From: Escherichia coli | GTDB lineage: Bacteria > Pseudomonadota > Gammaproteobacteria > Enterobacterales > Enterobacteriaceae | Assembly (NCBI RefSeq): GCF_030013205.1 | Contig: NZ_CP122648.1 | DNA length: 64,000 nt | Direction: 5' to 3' (one strand) | Part shown: positions 1,780 to 56,738 of the stretch, one piece after another | Numbering within the stretch: position 1 is the stretch's first letter | How the letters are laid out: each line of letters begins with the position of its first letter | Made by a program: the position numbers and the translations under genes | The notes under the pieces: model-generated | Databases searched by the model: none | What the model saw: the letters and a program-made list of their open reading frames with translations, nothing else | Told to the model about the DNA's origin: nothing

Positions 1780-1836
1780 AAGTTTCCCTCTAACCGACAT
1801 TAAAATTGATGCGTAATTATTTGTTTCGCCTTAAAG

Positions 1837-1866
1837 AAATGCAAACAACTTCCATCAAAAAAGTGA
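1837..1866 (+). repeat. 30-bp exact direct repeat, copy A (AAATGCAAACAACTTCCATCAAAAAAGTGA), upstream of mppA
   Basis: Read directly from the sequence; identical 30-mer at 5725-5754. Confidence 0.85.
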
Positions 1867-2115
1867 CAAAGGAAGCATCAAATGTTTTAAGTATCAATAT
1901 ATCAAATCAGATTTAGTGTAAATAATAGTCTCCAAAATGCGGTAAAGCACATAGAACTCCGAACACTACGTTCGGGCTTCGCACGTTCAAACCCGTTTTC
2001 GGTATCATAATCAGCATCTGTCGCCATTGTACGAAGAATAAAAAATGACCAAAACGTTGAAAGGAACTGAGAATACGTTAAGAGAAGAATTAAATTAATG
2101 TATCAGCAAGTAGTG

Positions 2116-3015
2116 CTAAACAGCACCTTTATACTTCAGCCTATCTATAAATAATGAGAATGCCGAGCCAGCATGTCGACGGTGTGGATAGTACAGGTGA
2201 TAACCGGGTAAATCTGGTGTGAATTTATCCAAAACACGTATCAGTTTTTATTCTTTAATAGCCCGCTCAACTTGATCATAAGGTAGATACGCCAATCCAT
2301 GCCCATCAATTGCAGCATCAATGATCAGGTCTATCGTATTCAGTAAAAGCTGACCTTCCATGCGAACACGAACTTCACGTCCACCGCGTATTAATCTCCA
2401 GCGATTTGCTGTACCCGATGTGGGAAGATACAAATTAATTGCCTGATGATCTATTAATTGTGACACTGACGTTGGAGCACTTCGACGAGAAAAATAATCC
2501 GGTGAGCCAACAATAGCCATTGGTATATCTGGCCCGATTCGAATGGCGATCATATCTTTATCCATCTCCCCACCCAGACGGACGCCTGCATCAAAACGTT
2601 CAGAAACGACATCGGTCAAACCATAATCAATGGTAAGCTGGATATCAATTTCAGGATGCGATTTCAGGAATGTGCGCATAGCTGGTAACAATATCGTTTT
2701 TGCTGCATGTTCTACAGTAGTAATACGTATTGTCCCGGATGGGCGGTTCTGCAGATCGCTCAGGGATGTCAGGGCAGAATCTATGTCATGCAACATAGGG
2801 CCAAGAACAGACAAAAGATGCTCGCCCGCTTCAGTGGGTACAACGCTGCGCGTGGTTCGCGTCAGAAGCCGCAATCCCAATCGTTCTTCTATACGGCGCA
2901 CTATCTGGCTTAAAGCTGACTGCGCCATGCTCAGGCGGGCTGCTGCGCGAGTGAAGCTACGCTCCTCTGCAACGACGACAAACGCCATCAGATCAGCGAT
3001 TTCTTCACGCTTCAT
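2116..3015 (-). pseudogene. pgrR: LysR-family regulator PgrR interrupted by an in-frame TAA at 2248-2250; expressed ORF 2248-3015 is 255 codons
   Basis: N-terminal LysR HTH (MKREEIADLMAFVVVAEERSFTRAAARL...). Translating past the TAA in the same frame gives KLIRVLDKFTPDLPGYHLYYPHRRHAGSAFSLFIDRLKYKGAV then TAG at 2116-2118, a typical LysR C-terminus. 255 + 1 + 43 = 299 codons, the length I recall for PgrR. Confidence 0.75.
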
Positions 3016-3039
3016 TCAGTATCTCCATACAATCTATTA

Positions 3040-3053
3040 ATCATTTAAATGAT
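3040..3053. promoter_or_regulatory. 14-bp perfect palindrome ATCATTTAAATGAT in the divergent pgrR/ycjY promoter region; candidate LysR-type (PgrR) operator
   Basis: Palindrome read from sequence. Flanked by a direct repeat GGTCTAATCA (3055-3064 and 3073-3082) and a second palindrome GTGATATCAC (3104-3113). Operator assignment is inference. Confidence 0.35.
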
Positions 3054-3152
3054 AGGTCTAATCATAATTTAGGGTCTAATCAACTTAATGATCAATATCT
3101 ATAGTGATATCACCAACCGTCAAAACGAACCGACAACTCCATGAGGAACGGA

Positions 3153-4073
3153 ATGATGAATAATAAAGTCAGCTTCACTAACAGCAATAATCCAACCATC
3201 TCTTTGTCTGCAGTGATCTATTTCCCTCCAAAATTTGATGAAACCCGTCAGTATCCGGCAATTGTGGTATCTCACCCAGGTGGGGGCGTTAAAGAGCAAA
3301 CGGCTGGAACCTATGCCAAAAAACTGGCGGAAAAGGGATTTGTCACTATTGCTTATGACGCATCTTATCAAGGTGAAAGCGGCGGCGAGCCGCGTCAGTT
3401 AGAAAACCCATACATTCGTACTGAAGACGTCAGTGCCGTGATTGATTACCTGACAACGCTTTCTTATGTCGACAATACCCGAATTGGTGCGATGGGAATT
3501 TGTGCCGGTGCAGGATATACAGCCAATGCTGCAATTCAGGATCGCCGCATCAAGGCCATCGGTACTGTTAGTGCGGTCAATATTGGTTCGATGTTCCGTA
3601 ATGGTTGGGAAAACAATGTGAAATCTATTGATGCCCTACCATACGTTGACGCGGGTTCAAACGCCCGAACCAGCGATATTAGTAGCGGAGAATACGCCAC
3701 TATGCCACTGGCACCAATGAAGGAGTCCGATGCGCCGAACGAAGAACTGCGTCAGGCCTGGGAGTATTACCACACCCCTCGCGCGCAGTATCCAACAGCA
3801 CCGGGTTACGCTACTTTGCGCAGCCTTAACCAGATTATTACCTATGATGCTTACCATATGGCGGAAGTGTACCTGACTCAGCCGATACAGATTGTGGCGG
3901 GCAGCCAGGCAGGGAGCAAATGGATGAGTGACGACCTGTACGATCGAGCATCAAGCCAGGATAAACGCTATCACATTGTTGAAGGCGCAAACCATATGGA
4001 TCTTTATGACGGCAAAGTCTATGTGGCTGAAGCAATTTCAGTATTAGCGCCGTTCTTTGAGGAAACTCTGTAA
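3153..4073 (+). CDS. ycjY: Alpha/beta-hydrolase fold protein (dienelactone-hydrolase-like)
   Basis: ORF 3141-4073; start placed at MMNNKV. Recognised as YcjY by sequence recall. Confidence 0.85.
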   Translation: MMNNKVSFTNSNNPTISLSAVIYFPPKFDETRQYPAIVVSHPGGGVKEQTAGTYAKKLAEKGFVTIAYDASYQGESGGEPRQLENPYIRTEDVSAVIDYLTTLSYVDNTRIGAMGICAGAGYTANAAIQDRRIKAIGTVSAVNIGSMFRNGWENNVKSIDALPYVDAGSNARTSDISSGEYATMPLAPMKESDAPNEELRQAWEYYHTPRAQYPTAPGYATLRSLNQIITYDAYHMAEVYLTQPIQIVAGSQAGSKWMSDDLYDRASSQDKRYHIVEGANHMDLYDGKVYVAEAISVLAPFFEETL

Positions 4074-4147
4074 TGAAACATATTCAAATCCGCAATAGTG
4101 ATATGGCCTGGCATATTACTGCCAATAATCTGGGAAAAGTTTCATGA
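4073..4147 (+). CDS. ymjD: 24-codon small ORF (MKHIQIRNSDMAWHITANNLGKVS) bridging ycjY and ymjC
   Basis: ATG overlaps the ycjY stop (TAATG) and its TGA overlaps the ymjC ATG (ATGA); GAGGAA 12 nt upstream. Below the ORF-track length cut-off. Gene name is tentative. Confidence 0.3.
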   Translation: MKHIQIRNSDMAWHITANNLGKVS

Positions 4148-4770
4148 AAAATGTACTGATTCTTGGTGCTGGCGGTCAGATAGCCCGCCATGTGATTAAT
4201 CAACTGGCAGATAAACAAACCATTAAACAAACTTTATTTGCCCGTCAGCCAGCAAAAATCCACAAACCCTATCCCACTAATAGCAAGATTATTATGGGGG
4301 ATGTACTGAATCATGCAGCACTGAAGCAGGCCATGCAGGGACAGGATGTTGTGTATGCCAACCTTACGGGGGAAGATTTAGATATTCAGGCAAATTCAGT
4401 GATCGCTGCGATGAAAGCCGGTGATGTTAAACGTCTGATCTTTGTTCTTTCCCTCGGTATTTATGATGAAGTTCCAGGAAAATTTGGCGAATGGAATAAT
4501 GCAGTTATTGGTGAGCCCCTAAAACCATTCCGCAGGGCTGCGGATGCAATTGAGGCTTCTGGACTGGAATATACAATTCTTCGCCCTGCCTGGCTGACTG
4601 ATGAAGATATTATTGATTATGAGCTTACCTCACGCAATGAACCATTCAAAGGTACGATCGTATCACGTAAGAGTGTCGCTGCATTAATTACAGATATCAT
4701 CGATAAACCTGAGAAACACATTGGTGAGAATATAGGCATCAATCAACCGGTGATGCTGCCAACTTACTGA
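4144..4770 (+). CDS. ymjC: NAD(P)-binding Rossmann-fold oxidoreductase; 3' end altered by IS1 insertion
   Basis: N-terminal MKNVLILGAGGQIARH is a GxGxxG dinucleotide-binding motif. The last 7 codons (PVMLPTY) and the stop are encoded by the IS1 left end; the original 3' end continues at 5526-5559. Confidence 0.6.
   Translation: MKNVLILGAGGQIARHVINQLADKQTIKQTLFARQPAKIHKPYPTNSKIIMGDVLNHAALKQAMQGQDVVYANLTGEDLDIQANSVIAAMKAGDVKRLIFVLSLGIYDEVPGKFGEWNNAVIGEPLKPFRRAADAIEASGLEYTILRPAWLTDEDIIDYELTSRNEPFKGTIVSRKSVAALITDIIDKPEKHIGENIGINQPVMLPTY
4740..4748. repeat. IS1 target-site duplication, left copy (CAATCAACC)
   Basis: Identical 9-mer immediately flanks both IS1 ends. Confidence 0.85.
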
Positions 4771-4803
4771 TTTAGTGTATGATGGTGTTTTTGAGGTGCT
4801 CCA

Positions 4804-5079
4804 GTGGCTTCTGTTTCTATCAGCTGTCCCTCCTGTTCAGCTACTGACGGGGTGGTGCGTAACGGCAAAAGCACCGCCGGACATCAGCGCTATCTCTGCT
4901 CTCACTGCCGTAAAACATGGCAACTACAGTTCACTTACGCCGCCTCTCAGCCCGGTACGCACCAGAAAATCATTGATATGGCCATGAATGGCGTCGGATG
5001 TCGCGCCAGTGCACGCATTATTGGCGTTGGCCTCAACACGATTTTCCGCCACTTAAAAAACTCAGGCCGCAGTCGGTAA
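4804..5079 (+). CDS. insA: IS1 InsA
   Basis: 91-aa ORF with zinc-finger-like CPSCS...CSHC N-terminus; matches recalled InsA. Confidence 0.9.
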
Positions 5080-5501
5080 CCTCGCGCATACAACCGGGCA
5101 GTGATGTGATTGTCTGCGCTGAAATGGACGAACAGTGGGGCTACGTCGGTGCTAAATCACGTCAGCGCTGGCTGTTTTACGCGTATGACAGGATGCGGAG
5201 GACGGTTGTGGCGCACGTCTTCGGTGAACGCACTCTGGCCACACTGGAGCGTCTTCTGAGCCTGCTGTCGGCCTTTGAGGTCGTGGTATGGATGACGGAT
5301 GGCTGGCCGCTGTATGAATCACGCCTGAAGGGAAAGCTGCACGTTATCAGCAAGCGTTATACTCAGCGCATTGAGCGGCATAACCTGAATCTGAGACAAC
5401 ATCTGGCAAGGCTGGGACGGAAGTCACTGTCGTTCTCAAAATCGGTGGAGCTGCATGACAAGGTCATCGGGCATTATCTGAACATAAAACACTATCAGTA
5501 A
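4998..5501 (+). CDS. insB: IS1 InsB (transposase catalytic part, made as an InsAB' fusion by -1 frameshift)
   Basis: 167-aa ORF overlapping insA in the -1 frame; matches recalled InsB. Confidence 0.85.
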
Positions 5502-5516
5502 GTTGGAGTCATTACC

Positions 5517-5525
5517 CAATCAACC
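5517..5525. repeat. IS1 target-site duplication, right copy (CAATCAACC)
   Basis: Identical to 4740-4748. Confidence 0.85.
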
Positions 5526-5577
5526 CGGGACTGATGGTGATAAGACATTCTTCATGTAAATCAATTATATAGCTACC

Positions 5578-5612
5578 ATCGTACTGTACTATGTGCAGTA
5601 CGATTTATTAAA
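5578..5612 (+). terminator. Hairpin (ATCGTACTG / CAGTACGAT, 9-bp stem) followed by a T-rich stretch, downstream of the original ymjC stop
   Basis: Inverted repeat read from sequence; lies about 20 nt past the displaced ymjC stop at 5557-5559. Confidence 0.4.
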
Positions 5613-5724
5613 CTTATTAAGGTGAACTGATCAATCAGATGCGATTAACATGTGTAGAACCAGTAAGAATAAAATACGCCATGTATATAACATTACGACA
5701 ATTCTAATATCTGCACATCAATGA

Positions 5725-5754
5725 AAATGCAAACAACTTCCATCAAAAAAGTGA
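5725..5754 (+). repeat. 30-bp exact direct repeat, copy B, upstream of mpaA
   Basis: Identical to 1837-1866. Confidence 0.85.
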
Positions 5755-5849
5755 TACAAGATCGATAACATAGCGTTGAAGAAAAGGATTTGATAATCCG
5801 CAAAATTTGCACAACACTGCCTGTAATACTTCCTGAACCAGAGACGATC

Positions 5850-6552
5850 ATGACCGTAACTCGCCCACGCGCCGAACGCGGCGCATTTCCGCCCGGAACA
5901 GAACATTACGGACGTTCATTATTGGGCGCGCCGTTAATCTGGTTTCCGGCCCCTGCAGCCAGTCACGAAAGTGGTTTGATTCTGGCTGGCACTCACGGTG
6001 ATGAAAACTCTTCGGTCGTCACGCTCTCCTGTGCTCTGCGGACGTTGACACCGTCTTTGCGCCGCCATCATGTGGTGCTGTGTGTGAATCCTGACGGCTG
6101 CCAGTTGGGGTTACGGGCCAATGCTAATGGTGTGGATTTAAACAGAAACTTTCCGGCGGCGAACTGGAAGGAAGGTGAAACCGTTTATCGCTGGAACAGC
6201 GCCGCTGAAGAACGTGATGTCGTATTGCTGACAGGTGACAAACCTGGCTCCGAACCTGAAACCCAGGCGCTGTGCCAGCTTATACACCGCATTCAACCCG
6301 CCTGGGTGGTCTCATTCCACGATCCGCTGGCCTGTATTGAAGATCCCAGACACAGCGAATTAGGCGAATGGCTGGCCCAGGCGTTTGAATTGCCTCTGGT
6401 AACCAGCGTCGGTTATGAAACGCCTGGCTCTTTCGGCAGTTGGTGTGCAGATCTCAACTTGCATTGCATCACCGCAGAGTTTCCGCCCATCTCCTCCGAC
6501 GAAGCCAGCGAAAAATATCTCTTTGCGATGGCAAACTTGCTGCGCTGGCATC

Positions 6553-6578
<26 letters not shown>
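5850..6578 (+). CDS. mpaA: Murein peptide amidase A (gamma-D-Glu-meso-Dap amidase)
   Basis: ORF 5790-6578; start placed at MTVTRPRAER to give 242 aa. Recognised by sequence recall. Confidence 0.85.
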
Positions 6579-7559
<981 letters not shown>

Positions 7560-44473: not shown

Positions 44474-45637
44474 TTACTTTTGATTGTCGATTCTGGTGAG
44501 AGCAACCAGCAATGCCAGCGTATAACACACCGTAATTGCCAGACTCATTTTTAACAGTGTTTCTCCGCCAATTCCCGACAATGGCGCGGCTATACCGCCG
44601 AAGACAAACATGCTCATCCCCATCAACGCAGACGCCGTTCCAGATTCCTGCGTCCCTACTGCACTCATAGCCTCTGCCCCGCCAACAGTGCCGATGCCGC
44701 TACAAAATGCGATGGTGAAAAATAATGCCACCAGTGCCGGAATGGGCAATTGTATCCATGCGCATAAGACCGTGAGCATTGCACACAAAATTGCCGCTAT
44801 CAGGCCACCTCGCAACAATGTCATCGCGTTAATCCGTCGCGCCAGGCGCGAGAAGATCCATGAAGCAATGATAAGTCCGATGCCGTTAAGGCCAAACACC
44901 AGGCTAAATTGCATTGGACTAAAGCCAAATTCCTTCTGCAACACGAACGACGAAGAGCCGATATATGCAAACAAACCGGCCAGCATAAAACTTTGAATCA
45001 GGCAAAAGCGCATAAAACGGCGGTTCTGCACCACGCTTCGTCCGGTTAATAGCAATGATGAGCCCCTTTTATTTTCTGGCAAGGTCTCATTAATAAATAA
45101 CAGGCAGCCCAGCAACAGTACGGTGCTAATTTCAGCCATTACCCAGAATAAAGTGCGCCAGTCAAAAGTGCTGACAATGTACCCGCCCAGCACTGGCGAC
45201 AACACCGGTGCCAGGCCATTCACCGTCATTAACAGCGCAAAAAACTGGGTCAACGTTACTCCCTGATATTTGTCACGAGCAATAGAACGAGAGAGCACCG
45301 AACCACCCGCCCCCGCGATCCCTTGAATAAAACGCCAGACCACCAGCCAGTAAATATTGTTCGTTGTCGCGCACAAAATGGAAGAAACAATAAACAATAG
45401 CAACGACAAGATTAACGGACGTTTACGCCCTATTTTGTCGCTCAGAGGGCCAAATAACAGTTGTCCGACGCCAAGACCGATCAGTGATGCAGTCAGCGTT
45501 AATTGCGTTATGGTCGTGGTTGCCGCCAGTTGCTCAGACATCTCCGGCAAAGCCGGCAAATAAAGATCGGTACACATCGGGCCGATACCGGCTAAAAGAC
45601 CAAGAATCAATGCCCATGAAAGAGAGACTCTAGCCAT
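44474..45637 (-). CDS. MFS (DHA1, Bcr/CflA-like) efflux transporter; last gene of the efflux cluster
   Basis: 387-aa polytopic membrane ORF with MFS signature GPLSDKIGRKRP after the first helices; starts 8 nt after the OMF stop. Confidence 0.8.
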   Translation of the reverse strand: MARVSLSWALILGLLAGIGPMCTDLYLPALPEMSEQLAATTTITQLTLTASLIGLGVGQLLFGPLSDKIGRKRPLILSLLLFIVSSILCATTNNIYWLVVWRFIQGIAGAGGSVLSRSIARDKYQGVTLTQFFALLMTVNGLAPVLSPVLGGYIVSTFDWRTLFWVMAEISTVLLLGCLLFINETLPENKRGSSLLLTGRSVVQNRRFMRFCLIQSFMLAGLFAYIGSSSFVLQKEFGFSPMQFSLVFGLNGIGLIIASWIFSRLARRINAMTLLRGGLIAAILCAMLTVLCAWIQLPIPALVALFFTIAFCSGIGTVGGAEAMSAVGTQESGTASALMGMSMFVFGGIAAPLSGIGGETLLKMSLAITVCYTLALLVALTRIDNQK

Positions 45638-45645
45638 ATTATTCC

Positions 45646-47019
45646 TTACTTGAGTGATGACATGCCGCCGTCCAGCGACTGCCAGAGCGTGATTCGGTTT
45701 GTAAAATCAGTCAGTTGTAGTGCCAGCAGCGCCTGCTGTGCGCTCCACAAGCTGCGCTGCGCCGTCAACACGGTCAGGTAATCACCAACACCCGCCTGAT
45801 AGCGACGCAAGCCAACATCGACCGTTTGTTGCTCAGCTTTAACATACTGGCGCTGTGCATCCAGTTGCTCTTCAAGCGTGGTCCGCCGCGCCAGTGCGTT
45901 AGCGACATCTTTAAATGCGCTCTGAACGGTTTTTTCATAGGTGGCAATGAGTCCACGCTTTTGTGCTTCTGCGTAACGAAGCTGCGCCAGATTACTTCCG
46001 CCAGTGAACAGCGGTAATGTGACCGATGGCGTAAATGACCAGATCTGCATTCCGTGGCTGAACAACGACGACAATGCGTCACTGCCAACACCAGCGCTGG
46101 CAGTCAGCGAAATCGTCGGAAAAAAGTTAGCCCGCGCCGCGCCAATATCGGCATTGGCGCTCTTCAAATTATGTTCCGCTTCCTGGATATCCGGGCGACG
46201 CAGCAGAACGTCAGATGACACTCCCGCAGGAACCAGACTTATCATTTGTTCCGGCAGGCTTTCCAGTGTTCCCGGTAGCAGATTTTCCGCAAGCGTTGTA
46301 CCTGCCAGTAAGTTCAGCGCATTTTTATCCTGCATCACTTGTGTCTGATAGCTGGCAACGCTGGCGCGCGCTTGCTGATAAACACTCATCGCCTCACTGA
46401 CATCTGTCGCTGCCGCCGTGCCAACCTGTTGCTGGCGCTGGATAATTTTCAATGAGTTTTCTGCACTGGCCATCGTTTCTTTTGCCAGGGCCAGGTTGCT
46501 GTTATCAGCCGCCAGTGTCAGCCAGGCGGTGCTGATTTCAGCAATCAGCGTTAAACGAGTGTTCTGGGCTGTAAATTCACTGGCAAGCCAGGTTTCCCGC
46601 GCCGCCCGAGATAAACTCTGATTACGACCAAACAGATCTAACGTAAAACTGGACACCGTGCCGTCAGCCTCGGCAGTGGTTTCCGTACCATTCGCCAGCG
46701 AACGACTGCGGGTTGAACTTAAGGCCGCATTCACCGTCGGGAATAACGACGCATTAGTTTGCCCATAGAGCGCCCGTGCTGAGTCAATATCAGCAATCGC
46801 TTTTTGCACATCGCGGTTACTGTTCAGTGCAATAGTCACCACCTGCTGCAATCGGGGATCGTGGATCACCTGCTGCCAGTCATGGCTGATTGCCTTTCCC
46901 TGGCCCTGTGCTCCCGGCAAGGTCGCCGGGATTGGGGATTCAGGCGTGCTGTAGTGGGGCTCGAGCGAGACACATCCCGCACTCAACAGCACCAGAAAAA
47001 TAAGAGAACGACGCAACAT
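45646..47019 (-). CDS. Outer-membrane efflux lipoprotein (OMF, NodT/OprM family)
   Basis: 457-aa ORF with lipoprotein signal peptide (LLSAGC) and the long coiled-coil-rich body typical of OMFs. Confidence 0.8.
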   Translation of the reverse strand: MLRRSLIFLVLLSAGCVSLEPHYSTPESPIPATLPGAQGQGKAISHDWQQVIHDPRLQQVVTIALNSNRDVQKAIADIDSARALYGQTNASLFPTVNAALSSTRSRSLANGTETTAEADGTVSSFTLDLFGRNQSLSRAARETWLASEFTAQNTRLTLIAEISTAWLTLAADNSNLALAKETMASAENSLKIIQRQQQVGTAAATDVSEAMSVYQQARASVASYQTQVMQDKNALNLLAGTTLAENLLPGTLESLPEQMISLVPAGVSSDVLLRRPDIQEAEHNLKSANADIGAARANFFPTISLTASAGVGSDALSSLFSHGMQIWSFTPSVTLPLFTGGSNLAQLRYAEAQKRGLIATYEKTVQSAFKDVANALARRTTLEEQLDAQRQYVKAEQQTVDVGLRRYQAGVGDYLTVLTAQRSLWSAQQALLALQLTDFTNRITLWQSLDGGMSSLK

Positions 47020-47022
47020 AAC

Positions 47023-50000
47023 TTACTCCTGACGGCGCGGTTTACCGGCAAACAAACGTTTCACCAGTACAAAAAACAGAGGAACAAAGAAAATAGCCAG
47101 CAACGTAGCGGTCAGCGTACCGCCAATAATGCCCGTACTAATGGCGATGCGGCTGTTCGCCCCTGCGCCGGTTGCTATCGCCAGCGGCATTACCCCCGCA
47201 ATAAACGCCAGCGAGGTCATGATGATTGGGCGTAAACGAGTCTGCGCCGCGCGTAATGCCGCACGACTCAAGGAATAGCCCTCTGCAACCGCCGCTTCAG
47301 CAAATTCCACAATCAGAATGGCGTTTTTCGACGACAAGCCGATAGTGGTTAATAGCGCCACCTGGAAGTAAACATCGTTGTTTAAATCACGCATCCAGGC
47401 CGCCAGCGCCGCGCCAAGAAGCCCCAGAGGGATCACCAGAATGACCGAGAACGGGACTGACCAGCTTTCGTACAGTGCTGCAAGGCAGAGGAAAACCACC
47501 AGAATAGAAACTGCATACAGACTCAATGCCTGACCGCTGGCCAGTTTCTCCTGCAATGACAAACCACTCCAGGCCCAGGTTGTTCCCGCAGGAAGACTGT
47601 TTGCCAGTTCCTCCATTTTTGTCATTGCATCGCCGGAACTAAAGCCAGTCGCATTTTCCCCCTGAATTTCATAGGCTGCCGAGCCGTTGTAGCGCACCAG
47701 TCTTTCCGGTCCATACAGCCAGCGGGTGGTCGCAAAAGCAGAGAATGGTGTCATGGCGTTATCGCTGCCGCGCACAAACCATTTACCTAAGTCTGACGGC
47801 GCGGAACGAAATTCGCTGTCGCCCTGAATGTAGACTTTTTTCACACGACCACGGTCAATAAAGTCATTCACATAAGTACCGCCCCACGCACTGGACAGGG
47901 TGTCGGTGACATCATTCAAACTCAACCCTAATGACACCACTTTATTGCTATCAATATCTACCTGCAATTGCGGCATTTGTGGCAAATCATTGGCGCGTAC
48001 AGAATGTAACTCCGGACTTTGATTCGCTTTTTCTATCAACTGATTACGCATTTGCAGCAGTGTTTCACGATCGGTTCCACCGTTAGCTAACAATTCAAAC
48101 GTAAAACCATTGCTTTGCCCCAGCCCATCAACGGCTGGCGGCGTCATCGCAAATACCGTGGCATCACGAATTGTGCCCAGCTCTTTGGTTGCCCGTAGGG
48201 CGATAGCCTGGGCGGTGTTTTCTGCCCCTTTACGTTGAGACCAGTTTTTCAACGAAACAAACGCCATCCCGGTGTTCTGTCCGCTGCCGCTAAAACTGAA
48301 ACCATCAACGGTAAAGATGACATCGGTATTTGCTTTCTCGTTAATCAGGAACCAGTCAACAATCTGGCGATTCACTTCTGCTGTACGGGCAGCGGTCGCC
48401 CCGGCCGGCAGCGTGTACTGCACCATGATTTCGCCCTGGTCTTCAGTGGGTAAGAAACTGCCCGGCAGTTTCCACATCATCAGGGCCATTCCACCACCCA
48501 GTACGACATAAAGCCCCATCGTTCGAGCAGCACGGCGCAGGACATAAATTACGCCTCGCTGATATTTATCTTCAGTACGGCGGTAAAAGCGGTTAAATGC
48601 GCCAAAAAAGCCTTTTTTATGTGGCGGAACATGCTGGAGGACGGAACCGCACAGGGCGGGAGTCAAGGTCAATGCCACTACCACGGAAAGCAGCATTGCG
48701 GAGATAATGGTTATCGAAAACTGACGATAAATTACCCCCGTAGATCCCCCAAAGAAGGCCATAGGCAGGAATACGGCTGACAACACCAGCGCAATGGCAA
48801 CCAGTGCGCCAGAAATCTCGCCCATTGATTTTTCCGTGGCTTCACGCGCGGGCAACCCTTCGTCACGCATAATGCGTTCGACGTTCTCCACCACCACAAT
48901 GGCATCGTCCACCAGCAAGCCGATCGCCAGCACCATTGCAAACAACGTCAGGGTATTAATCGAATAGCCAAACAACGCAAGAACGCCGAATGTGCCCAGC
49001 AAAACGACGGGGACAGCTAACGCCGGAATCAGTGTGGCACGCAGGTTTTGCAGGAATAAATACATCACGCAAACCACCAATACGATGGCTTCAAACAGCG
49101 TCTGAATTACGTCCTCTACAGAGATTTTAATAAATTCAGTGCTGTCTTTCGGGTATGCGATGTCGTATCCCTGCGGCATGTTCCGCTGGAATTCGGCAAT
49201 CTTATCCTTGACCAGCGTCGCCGTATTCAGCGCATTCGCACCGGGCGAAAGCATTACAGCAACCCCGGCAGACGGGTGACCGTTAAGTTTGCCGATAGCG
49301 GTATAATCTTCACTGCCCATCTCAACGCGAGCCACATCTTTTATACGAACAACTGCGCCGTCTGACTGGCTTTTCACGATAATATTTTTGAACTGATCCA
49401 CCGTCTGCAAGCGAGACTGCGCACGTACCGTTGCGGTCAGTTGCTGAGTATTCGGTGAAGGCAATGCCCCTATTTTCCCGGCAGTAACCTGCACGTTTTG
49501 CGCTTCAATAGCACTTTGCACGTCTGAAGGCATTAGCGAGTAAGACGCCAGTTTGGCCGGGTCAAGCCAGATGCGCATAGCGTATTCCGCGCCAAAGACT
49601 TGCAGACTCCCCACACCTTCAACACGCGCCAGCGGGTCCTGAACGTTACTAACCAACCAGTCGGCGATATCCGAACTGGAGGCTTTGTCAGTGGTGTCAT
49701 ACACGGCAGCAATCAGCAAAAAGTTGCTTTGTGATTTCTCCACCGTAACACCCGTTTGCTGCACTTCGCTGGGTAGGCGCGACTCCGCCTGCTGAATTTT
49801 ATTCTGCACCTGAACCTGTGCAGTATCTGGATCGGTACCTTGTTCAAAGGTCACATTAATACTGACCGAACCATCAGAGCTGCTGGTTGAGCTGAAATAG
49901 AGTAAATTATCAAGCCCAGTGAGTTGTTGCTCGATAACCTGAGTCACGCTGTTCTCCAGCGTTTCGGCAGAAGCACCAGTATAAGTGGCTGAAATTTTAA

Positions 50001-50130
50001 TGGTCGGTGGCGCAACGTCAGGATATTGTGCGACGGGCAATGTGCGAATAGCCAGAATCCCCGCCAACATAATCAAAATGGCGATAACCCAGGCAAAGAC
50101 CGGGCGGCGAACAAAAAAGCGCGAAAACAT
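47023..50130 (-). CDS. RND (HAE1, AcrB/MexB-like) inner-membrane efflux pump
   Basis: 1035-aa ORF with strong recalled similarity to AcrB blocks (MFSRFF..RPVFAWVIAI..., VQVQNK..., GLLVDDAIVVVENVER, NDVYFQVALLTTIGLS). Start overlaps the MFP stop (TGATG). Confidence 0.85.
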   Translation of the reverse strand: MFSRFFVRRPVFAWVIAILIMLAGILAIRTLPVAQYPDVAPPTIKISATYTGASAETLENSVTQVIEQQLTGLDNLLYFSSTSSSDGSVSINVTFEQGTDPDTAQVQVQNKIQQAESRLPSEVQQTGVTVEKSQSNFLLIAAVYDTTDKASSSDIADWLVSNVQDPLARVEGVGSLQVFGAEYAMRIWLDPAKLASYSLMPSDVQSAIEAQNVQVTAGKIGALPSPNTQQLTATVRAQSRLQTVDQFKNIIVKSQSDGAVVRIKDVARVEMGSEDYTAIGKLNGHPSAGVAVMLSPGANALNTATLVKDKIAEFQRNMPQGYDIAYPKDSTEFIKISVEDVIQTLFEAIVLVVCVMYLFLQNLRATLIPALAVPVVLLGTFGVLALFGYSINTLTLFAMVLAIGLLVDDAIVVVENVERIMRDEGLPAREATEKSMGEISGALVAIALVLSAVFLPMAFFGGSTGVIYRQFSITIISAMLLSVVVALTLTPALCGSVLQHVPPHKKGFFGAFNRFYRRTEDKYQRGVIYVLRRAARTMGLYVVLGGGMALMMWKLPGSFLPTEDQGEIMVQYTLPAGATAARTAEVNRQIVDWFLINEKANTDVIFTVDGFSFSGSGQNTGMAFVSLKNWSQRKGAENTAQAIALRATKELGTIRDATVFAMTPPAVDGLGQSNGFTFELLANGGTDRETLLQMRNQLIEKANQSPELHSVRANDLPQMPQLQVDIDSNKVVSLGLSLNDVTDTLSSAWGGTYVNDFIDRGRVKKVYIQGDSEFRSAPSDLGKWFVRGSDNAMTPFSAFATTRWLYGPERLVRYNGSAAYEIQGENATGFSSGDAMTKMEELANSLPAGTTWAWSGLSLQEKLASGQALSLYAVSILVVFLCLAALYESWSVPFSVILVIPLGLLGAALAAWMRDLNNDVYFQVALLTTIGLSSKNAILIVEFAEAAVAEGYSLSRAALRAAQTRLRPIIMTSLAFIAGVMPLAIATGAGANSRIAISTGIIGGTLTATLLAIFFVPLFFVLVKRLFAGKPRRQE

Positions 50131-51251
50131 CAGGCGTTGCCTCCATTAGCCTGAACTTCAACAGCCTTGACGGTCTGCCCTGAAGTGACTTTGGCAGAAC
50201 CTTCAACAATCAGTCGGTCGCCGTTGTGCAGGCCGTTCAGCACCAGCCATTTATCACCATACGTTTCTCCCGTTTCGAGCGTTCGCTGCTCTACTTTATT
50301 GTCTTTATTCACCACCAGCGCAGTTGCATTGCCTTTAGCATCGCGCGTGACGCCCTGTTGCGGCGCGAGAATAGCGTCTTCCATCACGCCTTCATCGACA
50401 CGAGCGCGAACAAACATTCCCGGTAATAACTGCTGTTGTGGATTGGGGAAAATCGCCCGTAATGTCACCGAACCGGTAGACTCATCTACAGCGACTTCGG
50501 TGAGTTCCAGACGCCCTTTTTCGCTGTAGGTTGTGCCATCTTCCAGAATAAGTGAGACGCTCATGGTGTCACTGTTGGTCGCCAGTGACTGTTTACGCAG
50601 ACGTAATAAATCGACACTGGAGCGAGTGAGGTCGACATACATTGTCTCCAGACCACGAATAGTCGTTAACGCTGTATCTTGCGACGCGGTCACCAGTGCG
50701 CCAGGGGTTACCGACGAAATGCCAATTCGCCCTGAAATCGGTGCGGTTACCGTGGTCCAGTCAAGATTAATGCGCGCAGTTTCCAGCGCGGCTTTTTTCG
50801 CCTCTACACTGGCTTTATCTTGTGCACAGGTAGACTGAGCATCATCAGCATCCTGTTGTGAAACACCGTTCTCTTTCACCAGTCGGGCATAACGCTGCGC
50901 TTTCTGGCAATCGGCTTTTACCAGTGCCTGTGCTTGTTGTAATGCTGCCCGAGCTTCATTCCATGCAGCCTGATAACTGGCCGCATCAATCTGGTAGAGA
51001 GGCTGTCCAGCCTTGACCAGATCCCCTTCCTTAAATAAGCGTTTCTGGATAATTCCCCCAACCTGCGGACGTACTTCAGCACTGAGCGCAGCACTGGTGC
51101 GTCCGGTTAATTCACTGACTACCGAGACCGGTTGAGATTTGACTGTAACAACGCCGACTTCTGTTTCTGACGGGGATGAATTGTTACTTTGCGTATTATC
51201 ACAACCAGATAAGAGCAGCATTGCCACTACAGATGTTGCTATATACTTCAT
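50130..51251 (-). CDS. Periplasmic membrane-fusion lipoprotein (AcrA/MexA family)
   Basis: ORF 50130-51284; start placed at MKYIATSVVAMLLLSGC (lipobox, GGAG 8 nt upstream). Confidence 0.8.
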   Translation of the reverse strand: MKYIATSVVAMLLLSGCDNTQSNNSSPSETEVGVVTVKSQPVSVVSELTGRTSAALSAEVRPQVGGIIQKRLFKEGDLVKAGQPLYQIDAASYQAAWNEARAALQQAQALVKADCQKAQRYARLVKENGVSQQDADDAQSTCAQDKASVEAKKAALETARINLDWTTVTAPISGRIGISSVTPGALVTASQDTALTTIRGLETMYVDLTRSSVDLLRLRKQSLATNSDTMSVSLILEDGTTYSEKGRLELTEVAVDESTGSVTLRAIFPNPQQQLLPGMFVRARVDEGVMEDAILAPQQGVTRDAKGNATALVVNKDNKVEQRTLETGETYGDKWLVLNGLHNGDRLIVEGSAKVTSGQTVKAVEVQANGGNA

Positions 51252-51278
51252 TATTTTCTCCAGGGTGAGAAATACCCT

Positions 51279-51298
51279 CCTCATTAAAATTAATGAGG
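51279..51298. promoter_or_regulatory. Perfect inverted repeat CCTCATTAA-aa-TTAATGAGG 28-47 nt upstream of the MFP start; candidate operator
   Basis: Read from sequence; 9-bp arms, 2-bp spacer. Confidence 0.35.
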
Positions 51299-51335
51299 AT
51301 ATGTCAGGGATATTCAGTTATAACGAACCCGCATC

Positions 51336-51351
51336 GCGAAATGAATTTCGC
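51336..51351. promoter_or_regulatory. Perfect inverted repeat GCGAAAT-ga-ATTTCGC between tetR and the MFP gene; candidate operator
   Basis: Read from sequence; 7-bp arms, 2-bp spacer. Confidence 0.35.
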
Positions 51352-51361
51352 AATGAAATAA

Positions 51362-51379
51362 GGGGGATTAATATCCCCC
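51362..51379 (-). terminator. GC hairpin (GGGGGA-TATTAA-TCCCCC) followed by a U-rich tract on the minus strand, 20 nt after the tetR stop
   Basis: Minus strand reads hairpin then TTATTTCATT; candidate terminator or attenuator between regulator and pump genes. Confidence 0.4.
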
Positions 51380-51399
51380 GCTATTGGTTAATTCTGTTC

Positions 51400-51966
51400 T
51401 TATTTATTTATCAACATACTAACAATATCCTGATATATTTCCTGCAGATGTTGTGGATCGCTTTTTTGCGGTGTTAAACGACGATAAACCGTACCTTCCA
51501 TCATGGTAGCAAACACTTCAACGCAGCAACGAATGTGCTCGTCGCTAAGATGGGGATGCATTCTTTTCATATGTGCACAACCGTTAGCGAACATTCTGGC
51601 GTCAGCTTCTTCAAGCATTGCCATAACCCGCGGGTTGCGTGTGGCTTCTGCAGCCACTTCCAGCATCAGCGCGTCGTCGTCCTCATTTAAGGATTTACGC
51701 AAGGCAAGGACTTCCGGGAAGTGATCGGTACGCGCGTCAATGTCCATTTGGGCAATACGAAAGTCGATGATACGGCGAACCATCTCTTCAATAATGGCGT
51801 CTTTGTTGGCGAAGTAACGATATATCTGACCCACGCTAAGCTGAGCTTCGCTGGCAATTTGCGACATACTGGCGGCATGAAACCCGCAGCGACGAAAACA
51901 CCGACGGGCGGCGTTAATGATTTCATCCTGACGCTGTTTGTGGCGTATCTCCAGCTTGCTGGTCAT
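51400..51966 (-). CDS. TetR/AcrR-family transcriptional regulator, co-oriented with and upstream of the pump genes
   Basis: ORF 51400-52065; start placed at MTSKLEIRHK (AGGAGA 5 nt upstream) so the HTH (AARRCFRRCGFHAASMSQIASEAQLSVGQIYRYF) sits at the usual N-terminal position. The longer 221-codon version would read through the palindrome at 51992-52009. Confidence 0.75.
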   Translation of the reverse strand: MTSKLEIRHKQRQDEIINAARRCFRRCGFHAASMSQIASEAQLSVGQIYRYFANKDAIIEEMVRRIIDFRIAQMDIDARTDHFPEVLALRKSLNEDDDALMLEVAAEATRNPRVMAMLEEADARMFANGCAHMKRMHPHLSDEHIRCCVEVFATMMEGTVYRRLTPQKSDPQHLQEIYQDIVSMLINK

Positions 51967-56505: not shown

Positions 56506-56738
56506 TCTCCTTTCACGGCCCATTCCTCATGAATGGGCCGTTTATTTCCCCGCTCCACCTTCGTCATATCCCGGCAGATTTTTAACTGACTTTCGTTTGA
56601 AAACTGGCGTTTTTCCAAAACTGGATTACAAATAAATATATAAAAAAACAATGCGTTTAGCCGCCGTTAATTTCATGTAAGTCATGTTGTTCCTTTTATT
56701 TAACCGCGGACTCCGCTGTTAACCGGAGGATATGCATC

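Follow-up and report, generated by a model that had tools for sequence, protein, structure and literature searches.

The question raised by this locus is whether the LysR-family regulator gene pgrR (ycjZ) has truly been interrupted by a stop codon, and what such an interruption would mean for the regulator and for the genes under its control. The window, that is, the whole stretch of DNA analysed here, comprises 64,000 nucleotides of Escherichia coli sequence (NCBI RefSeq assembly GCF_030013205.1, contig NZ_CP122648.1). Within it, pgrR is arranged as follows.

2116..3015, minus strand: pgrR (ycjZ) pseudogene, a 299-codon LysR-family frame with an internal stop (from identity to annotated pgrR and from PGAP)
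2248..2250, minus strand: premature TAA in place of Lys256 (AAA) (from alignment; 35-mer present in 7/5,426 genomes)
2251..3015, minus strand: surviving 255-aa ORF, with the complete wHTH, the linker helix and the effector domain as far as helix 246-254
2116..2247, minus strand: orphaned 43 codons and the native TAG, corresponding to strands 259-261 and 272-277 and helix 284-293

A 931-bp region of the window matched annotated pgrR at 98.4-100% identity in about 5,200 (5,207) E. coli genomes, in which the matched gene is annotated as 'DNA-binding transcriptional regulator PgrR'. At 95-100% identity a pgrR match was obtained in 5,242 of the 5,426 complete E. coli genomes, while no pgrR match whatever was found in the other 184 of these 5,426. 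The gene order was also the usual one, mppA - pgrR <> ycjY - SDR - mpaA - ycjG - tpx - tyrR. Both the sequence and the synteny (mppA - pgrR <> ycjY...mpaA - ycjG) are thus those of a PgrR orthologue, and the naming of the gene as pgrR in the preliminary description is borne out. On the minus strand, the ATG-initiated ORF (3015..2248) encodes 255 aa and ends at a TAA (2250-2248). Past this TAA the pgrR frame stays open for 43 codons, encoding KLIRVLDKFTPDLPGYHLYYPHRRHAGSAFSLFIDRLKYKGAV, down to the native TAG (2118-2116). Full-length PgrR has 299 aa, of which residues 256-299 (44 residues) are lost to the TAA. The position of the stop, the tail peptide and the number of lost codons had all been given correctly in the preliminary description, which also attributed the stop to a single-base change from a sense codon and proposed to identify that codon by alignment with pgrR of other E. 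coli. The alignment with FDAARGOS_1281 and a K-12-like strain revealed that codon 256 is AAA (Lys256) in intact alleles and TAA here (GAA AAA AAA CTG to GAA TAA AAA CTG), confirming the single-base origin with AAA as the ancestral codon. The mutated base is window position 2250, A on the plus strand and T on the coding strand, and the change is one A>T transversion within an A8 run. Furthermore, the orphaned tail matches the 3' end of intact pgrR base for base, indicating that the open frame after the TAA did not arise by chance. A stop that replaces a sense codon of the orthologues, followed by a homologous frame downstream, is what defines a nonsense pseudogene.

In a 35-mer search, exactly seven of the 5,426 complete E. 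coli genomes carried the TAA allele, and each of the seven came from swine: K_EC180 from Korea, and ETEC1748, ETEC4067, ETEC4069, ETEC4070, ETEC4071 and ETEC4079 from Belgium. Every 28-base seed of the probe spans the T, and the test would miss a TAA allele that had another SNP less than about 10 bases away; a looser search at an identity of at least 99% returned eight records, compared with seven by the stricter 35-mer test. The ancestral 67-mer carrying AAA had an exact match in 4,276 genomes. In public assemblies, gene calling gave the identical 255-aa protein on 31 contigs, and the collection indexes it in 53 blocks; of the 24 contigs that were read, most were drafts that begin exactly where the SDR gene runs into IS1 (see below). 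The K_EC180 assembly was built from PacBio reads with Illumina polishing (PMC8071739). The occurrence of the allele in seven complete genomes, one of them Illumina-polished, and of the same protein on 31 contigs indicates that it was inherited and did not come from sequencing error. The pgrR nonsense allele is real, inherited and specific to one pig-associated clone. It is also already known, as the public RefSeq annotation flags the gene as a pseudogene: PGAP labelled pgrR 'pseudo, internal stop' in all four records inspected, namely K_EC180 (locus tag IGX36_RS13115), ETEC1748, ETEC4079 and ETEC4070. The PGAP coordinates of pgrR in ETEC1748 equal those found here, and the window is the same as ETEC1748 positions 2754694-2818693 save for one 1-bp deletion.

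The age of the mutation can be judged from ETEC6333 (pig, Netherlands; NZ_CP122600.1), in which pgrR is intact. In the 2,987 bp that run from mppA to the start of ycjY, this genome differs from the window at a single base, the one that creates the stop, and its SDR gene and mpaA region are also identical to those of the window. The one-base difference indicates that the stop is derived and very young, and the youth of the stop in turn explains the preserved tail without any need for read-through.

What the truncation takes away was examined with domain models, family alignments and a predicted structure. In intact PgrR, Pfam placed HTH_1 (PF00126) at residues 7-65 (E = 2.8e-21), which falls inside the surviving 255-aa ORF, a protein for which PF00126 is itself listed, so that the wHTH expected of an LTTR is complete. 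LysR_substrate (PF03466) covers residues 90-294 (model positions 2-205 of 209), and the complete LTTR effector domain, with its two subdomains and two crossovers, is not present here because the ORF ends after residue 255. NCBIfam held no PgrR-specific model and gave hits to paralogue models only, all below their cut-offs. An AlphaFold2 model of intact PgrR, built from 85 full-length relatives, had a mean pLDDT of 93.9 and displayed the canonical LTTR fold at the usual length of ~300 aa, which only the ancestral frame reaches. In this model helix 246-254 stops at the truncation point. Residues 256-299, absent from the product, contribute strands 259-261 and 272-277 and helix 284-293 (pLDDT 86-99); by standard LTTR topology we take these to be the second crossover, one strand of subdomain I and the helix that closes the C-terminus. 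The tail was also conserved in the 85 relatives, with the consensus GxLVxVLxDWxPxxxGxxLYYPxRRxxxxALRAFIDxLR and L258 conserved at 90% or more. The truncation of the C-terminal domain named in the preliminary description is thus upheld, and Pfam, tail conservation and the AlphaFold2 model show that the lost part belongs to the LysR effector domain and is conserved. Homologues ending at the position of the stop were looked for as well; full-length relatives in the family have about 294-310 aa and nearly all of them align to the query through roughly residues 290-298, which leaves the reading of the TAA as premature unrefuted.

Judged from the model and from family conservation, the 255-aa product is likely unable to complete its effector domain, with loss of function as the consequence. 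It would keep the wHTH and the linker helix but go without the second crossover, the subdomain I strand and the C-terminal helix. Incomplete periplasmic-binding-protein-like domains usually misfold, and PgrR(1-255) most likely does not fold properly or is unstable, and does not work as a repressor. A literature search on C-terminal truncations of LysR proteins found none that was relevant, and inactivation of LTTRs by C-terminal truncation is argued here from the structure model and general knowledge. Another possibility is that truncated PgrR is made and still binds its operators through a wHTH/linker dimer, so that it acts as an effector-blind or weakened repressor with partial repression. 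In fact, residues 1-86 (HTH_1 and linker helix 62-86) and most of subdomain II are untouched in the 255-aa product, the truncated ORF has a normal start and a normal upstream region, and in other LysR proteins the wHTH and linker helix alone can dimerise and bind DNA. However, the lost part is a core strand of subdomain I together with the terminal helix, both high-confidence parts of the model and conserved across the relatives; this, along with the reach of the full-length relatives and the usual fate of incomplete domains of this type, makes a partially active repressor unlikely.

Loss of PgrR would bear on the genes that it controls. The PgrR regulon has been listed as ycjG, ycjXF-tyrR and ycjY-ymjDC-mpaA, and ycjY/ycjZ was a SELEX target of PgrR (PMC5934670). 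Autoregulation by PgrR is negative (PMC10505187), and PgrR was described as lowering mpaA expression in rich medium (bioRxiv 10.1101/2022.11.17.516864). In the window, the control region and the operon are laid out as follows.

3016..3152, no strand assigned: divergent pgrR/ycjY control region, with a palindrome and a direct repeat
3153..4073, plus strand: ycjY (alpha/beta hydrolase), first gene of the PgrR-controlled operon, intact
4144..4770, plus strand: SDR oxidoreductase gene, the whole form of K-12 ymjD/ymjC, nearly whole here
4749..5516, plus strand: IS1, 768 bp, insA/insB, in the same orientation as the operon
5850..6578, plus strand: mpaA (murein tripeptide amidase), intact, with IS1 between it and the ycjY promoter

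The spacer between pgrR and ycjY contains a palindrome, ATCATTTAAATGAT, at 3040-3053 and a direct repeat, GGTCTAATCA, at 3055-3064 and 3073-3082, whose starts are 18 bp apart. The palindrome and the repeats are candidate PgrR operator elements. The spacer has three substitutions relative to FDAARGOS_1281 and K-12-like alleles, two of which (3066 and 3071, between the GGTCTAATCA repeats) are common to 193 genomes, and all of 3016-3152 is identical in ETEC6333, where pgrR is intact. The operator region was thus not specifically altered in the clone, and clone-specific operator mutations were rejected on these grounds.

The operon itself is not of the K-12 type. Comparison of window 4144-4770 with the K-12 type of locus (4748-4885 in the numbering of that sequence) revealed that 'ymjD-ymjC' of K-12 is what is left of a gene for a 212-aa SDR (NAD-binding) protein. 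Many E. coli strains have this gene whole, so the K-12 operon names transfer poorly to this strain. Here the SDR product has 208 aa in place of the 212 in other strains, its last codons being replaced by IS1 sequence. The inserted element interrupts the operon where the SDR gene ends, leaving ycjY-SDR on one side and mpaA on the other, and has every mark of IS1: a length of 768 bp, terminal inverted repeats (GGTGATGCTGCC... and ...GGAGTCATTACC), insA/insB with their programmed frameshift, and, flanking it, CAATCAACC as a 9-bp duplication of the target (4740-4748 and 5517-5525). PGAP labels it 'IS1 family transposase, programmed frameshift'. A 35-mer across the IS1 junction was present in precisely the seven TAA genomes. 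The preliminary description had named PgrR as a reported repressor of ycjY-ymjD-ymjC-mpaA and proposed that its truncation could derepress these genes. The first part agrees with the cited regulon, but the operon in this strain is a different one, containing the SDR gene and IS1. Derepression is plausible for ycjY and the SDR gene, while its extension to mpaA is not upheld in so simple a form, as an IS1 with its 9-bp duplication separates the SDR gene from mpaA.

The consequences can be set out as follows. Loss of PgrR would abolish negative autoregulation and raise transcription from the pgrR promoter, and it would make ycjY and the SDR gene constitutively transcribed from the ycjY promoter. 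Polarity is a classical property of IS1 insertions, and polarity of this kind would be expected to uncouple mpaA from the ycjY promoter. If this is so, derepression would reach ycjY and the SDR gene and probably not mpaA. The latter may have its own promoter or be served by IS1-driven transcription; a consensus scan of 1800-6000 for promoters and terminators gave counts near the shuffle expectation.

Other lesions are recorded at this locus in one strain or another, and one of them lies next to mpaA.

6553..7517, minus strand: ycjG (L-Ala-D/L-Glu epimerase), frameshifted by a 1-bp deletion at 7088/7089

The deletion changes GCGCCTGCC to GCGCTGCC and splits ycjG, itself a listed member of the PgrR regulon, into two 161-aa ORFs, and PGAP flags the gene as 'frameshifted'. 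It is the 1-bp difference from ETEC1748 given above. Among the 5,426 genomes it was found only in ETEC4079, which identifies the window as ETEC4079 (NZ_CP122643.1); as a singleton, it could be genuine and specific to this strain or a fault of the assembly. Furthermore, ETEC6333 carries an IS3-family element inside ycjY (locus positions 4603-6859, NZ_CP122600.1), which is a second, independent IS insertion in the ycjY-SDR-mpaA operon, and in K-12 most of the SDR gene has been deleted. The ycjG frameshift, the IS3 element in ycjY and the K-12 deletion together favour decay of the locus, and its simplest reading is erosion, or relaxed selection, on a dispensable murein-tripeptide catabolic cluster and not regulatory innovation. 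Each of pgrR, ycjY, the SDR gene and ycjG carries a lesion in some lineage, which suggests that E. coli can do without this cluster. All things considered, the locus is well accounted for, and probably correctly so, by a recent and inherited Lys256 AAA->TAA change in a swine ETEC/Stx2e clone, with loss of PgrR and erosion of the locus.

The same lesions could be viewed as the outcome of selection, in which loss of PgrR in a pig-adapted clone was favoured to raise ycjY/SDR or ycjG, or to offset the polarity of IS1 on mpaA. The TAA and IS1 are perfectly linked in all seven genomes, the sister lineage was struck independently in the same operon by IS3, and other shortened PgrR forms recur in the protein cluster of the 255-aa form, although many of these entries are labelled 'partial' and some merely end at contig ends, so that they are perhaps contig-end cuts. 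However, repeated lesions are equally consistent with relaxed selection, the SDR gene having been lost in K-12 as well, and the order in which the TAA and IS1 arose within the clone cannot be set. We consider selection for the loss of PgrR improbable. Its boldest version, that the linked pgrR stop and IS1 adaptively rewired the way in which a globally spread pig ETEC/Stx2e clone handles murein tripeptides, is more doubtful still. Were it true, ycjY and the SDR gene would be constitutive, mpaA would be uncoupled, gut muropeptide turnover or release would be altered, and the independent IS insertions in sister lineages would reflect repeated selection on the operon.

Two further explanations would leave PgrR whole. 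Read-through or recoding at the TAA could still yield the full-length protein, as the frame downstream is perfectly preserved. However, a preserved frame is what is expected of a very young mutation (one difference in about 3 kb from ETEC6333), UAA is recognised by both release factors, no recoding signal near the TAA was seen in the pgrR sequence read, and PGAP treats the gene as a pseudogene, making read-through highly improbable. There is next to no chance that sequencing or assembly went wrong in an A-rich homopolymer and that the gene is really intact: the change does lie within an A8 run and long-read assemblies err in homopolymers, but it is a substitution and not an indel, and an artefact is ruled out by its presence in seven complete assemblies from two countries, among them the Illumina-polished K_EC180, and by the truncated protein on 31 contigs.

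The TAA allele is a single base by which one swine ETEC/Stx2e clone, known from Belgium and Korea, can be cleanly recognised. A natural pgrR mutant together with the near-isogenic, pgrR-intact ETEC6333 should also be useful for studies on PgrR and peptidoglycan recycling. Beyond strain biology the stop is of little consequence, being that of an ordinary pseudogene, while the locus cautions against carrying K-12 operon models over to other strains.

Elsewhere in the window, two further features stood out. Between sapF and fabI (about 44474-51966) there is a five-gene efflux cluster encoding an MFS transporter, an outer-membrane subunit, an RND permease, a periplasmic adaptor and a TetR regulator. 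It is presumably absent from the K-12 gene order and may be an accessory island. Between rnb and pdeR (about 56582-56685), a small pseudogene is annotated by PGAP as 'frameshifted hypothetical protein' in the corresponding region of ETEC1748.

Among known systems, the nearest are the other carriers of the allele. The RefSeq pgrR pseudogenes of K_EC180, ETEC1748, ETEC4067, ETEC4069, ETEC4070, ETEC4071 and ETEC4079 have the same allele and the same IS1 junction, with no difference from the window. The reference for function is K-12, whose PgrR was reportedly described as a LysR-type regulator of peptidoglycan recycling by Shimada, Yamazaki and Ishihama in 2013 (Genes Cells 18:123, as cited in PMC5934670 and PMC10505187). 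At about 98.5% nucleotide identity, K-12 pgrR (ycjZ) is one and the same gene and shares the mppA-pgrR/ycjY synteny, and its pgrR/ycjY control region has four substitutions relative to the window, none of them clone-specific. However, K-12 PgrR has 299 aa with AAA at codon 256, whereas the window encodes 255 aa with TAA at this codon, and the K-12 operon holds the ymjD/ymjC remnant where the window has a nearly whole SDR gene and IS1. The K-12 remnant and the IS3-disrupted ycjY of ETEC6333 are, like the stop, independent inactivating lesions associated with the ycjY-SDR-mpaA operon; the deletion in K-12 and the IS3 element in ETEC6333 strike target genes, whereas the stop in the window strikes the regulator. 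Beyond E. coli, AphB (3szp/3t1b) and CrgA (3hhg) matched the intact PgrR model over about 290-298 columns (Foldseek E about 1e-23 to 1e-24), and their sequences align with intact PgrR to residue 292 for AphB and to residue 278 for CrgA. These two proteins share only about 26% identity with PgrR, and their effectors and targets differ from its own. Nevertheless, as matches to the intact PgrR model they show what the tail lost in the swine clone contributes to the LysR fold.
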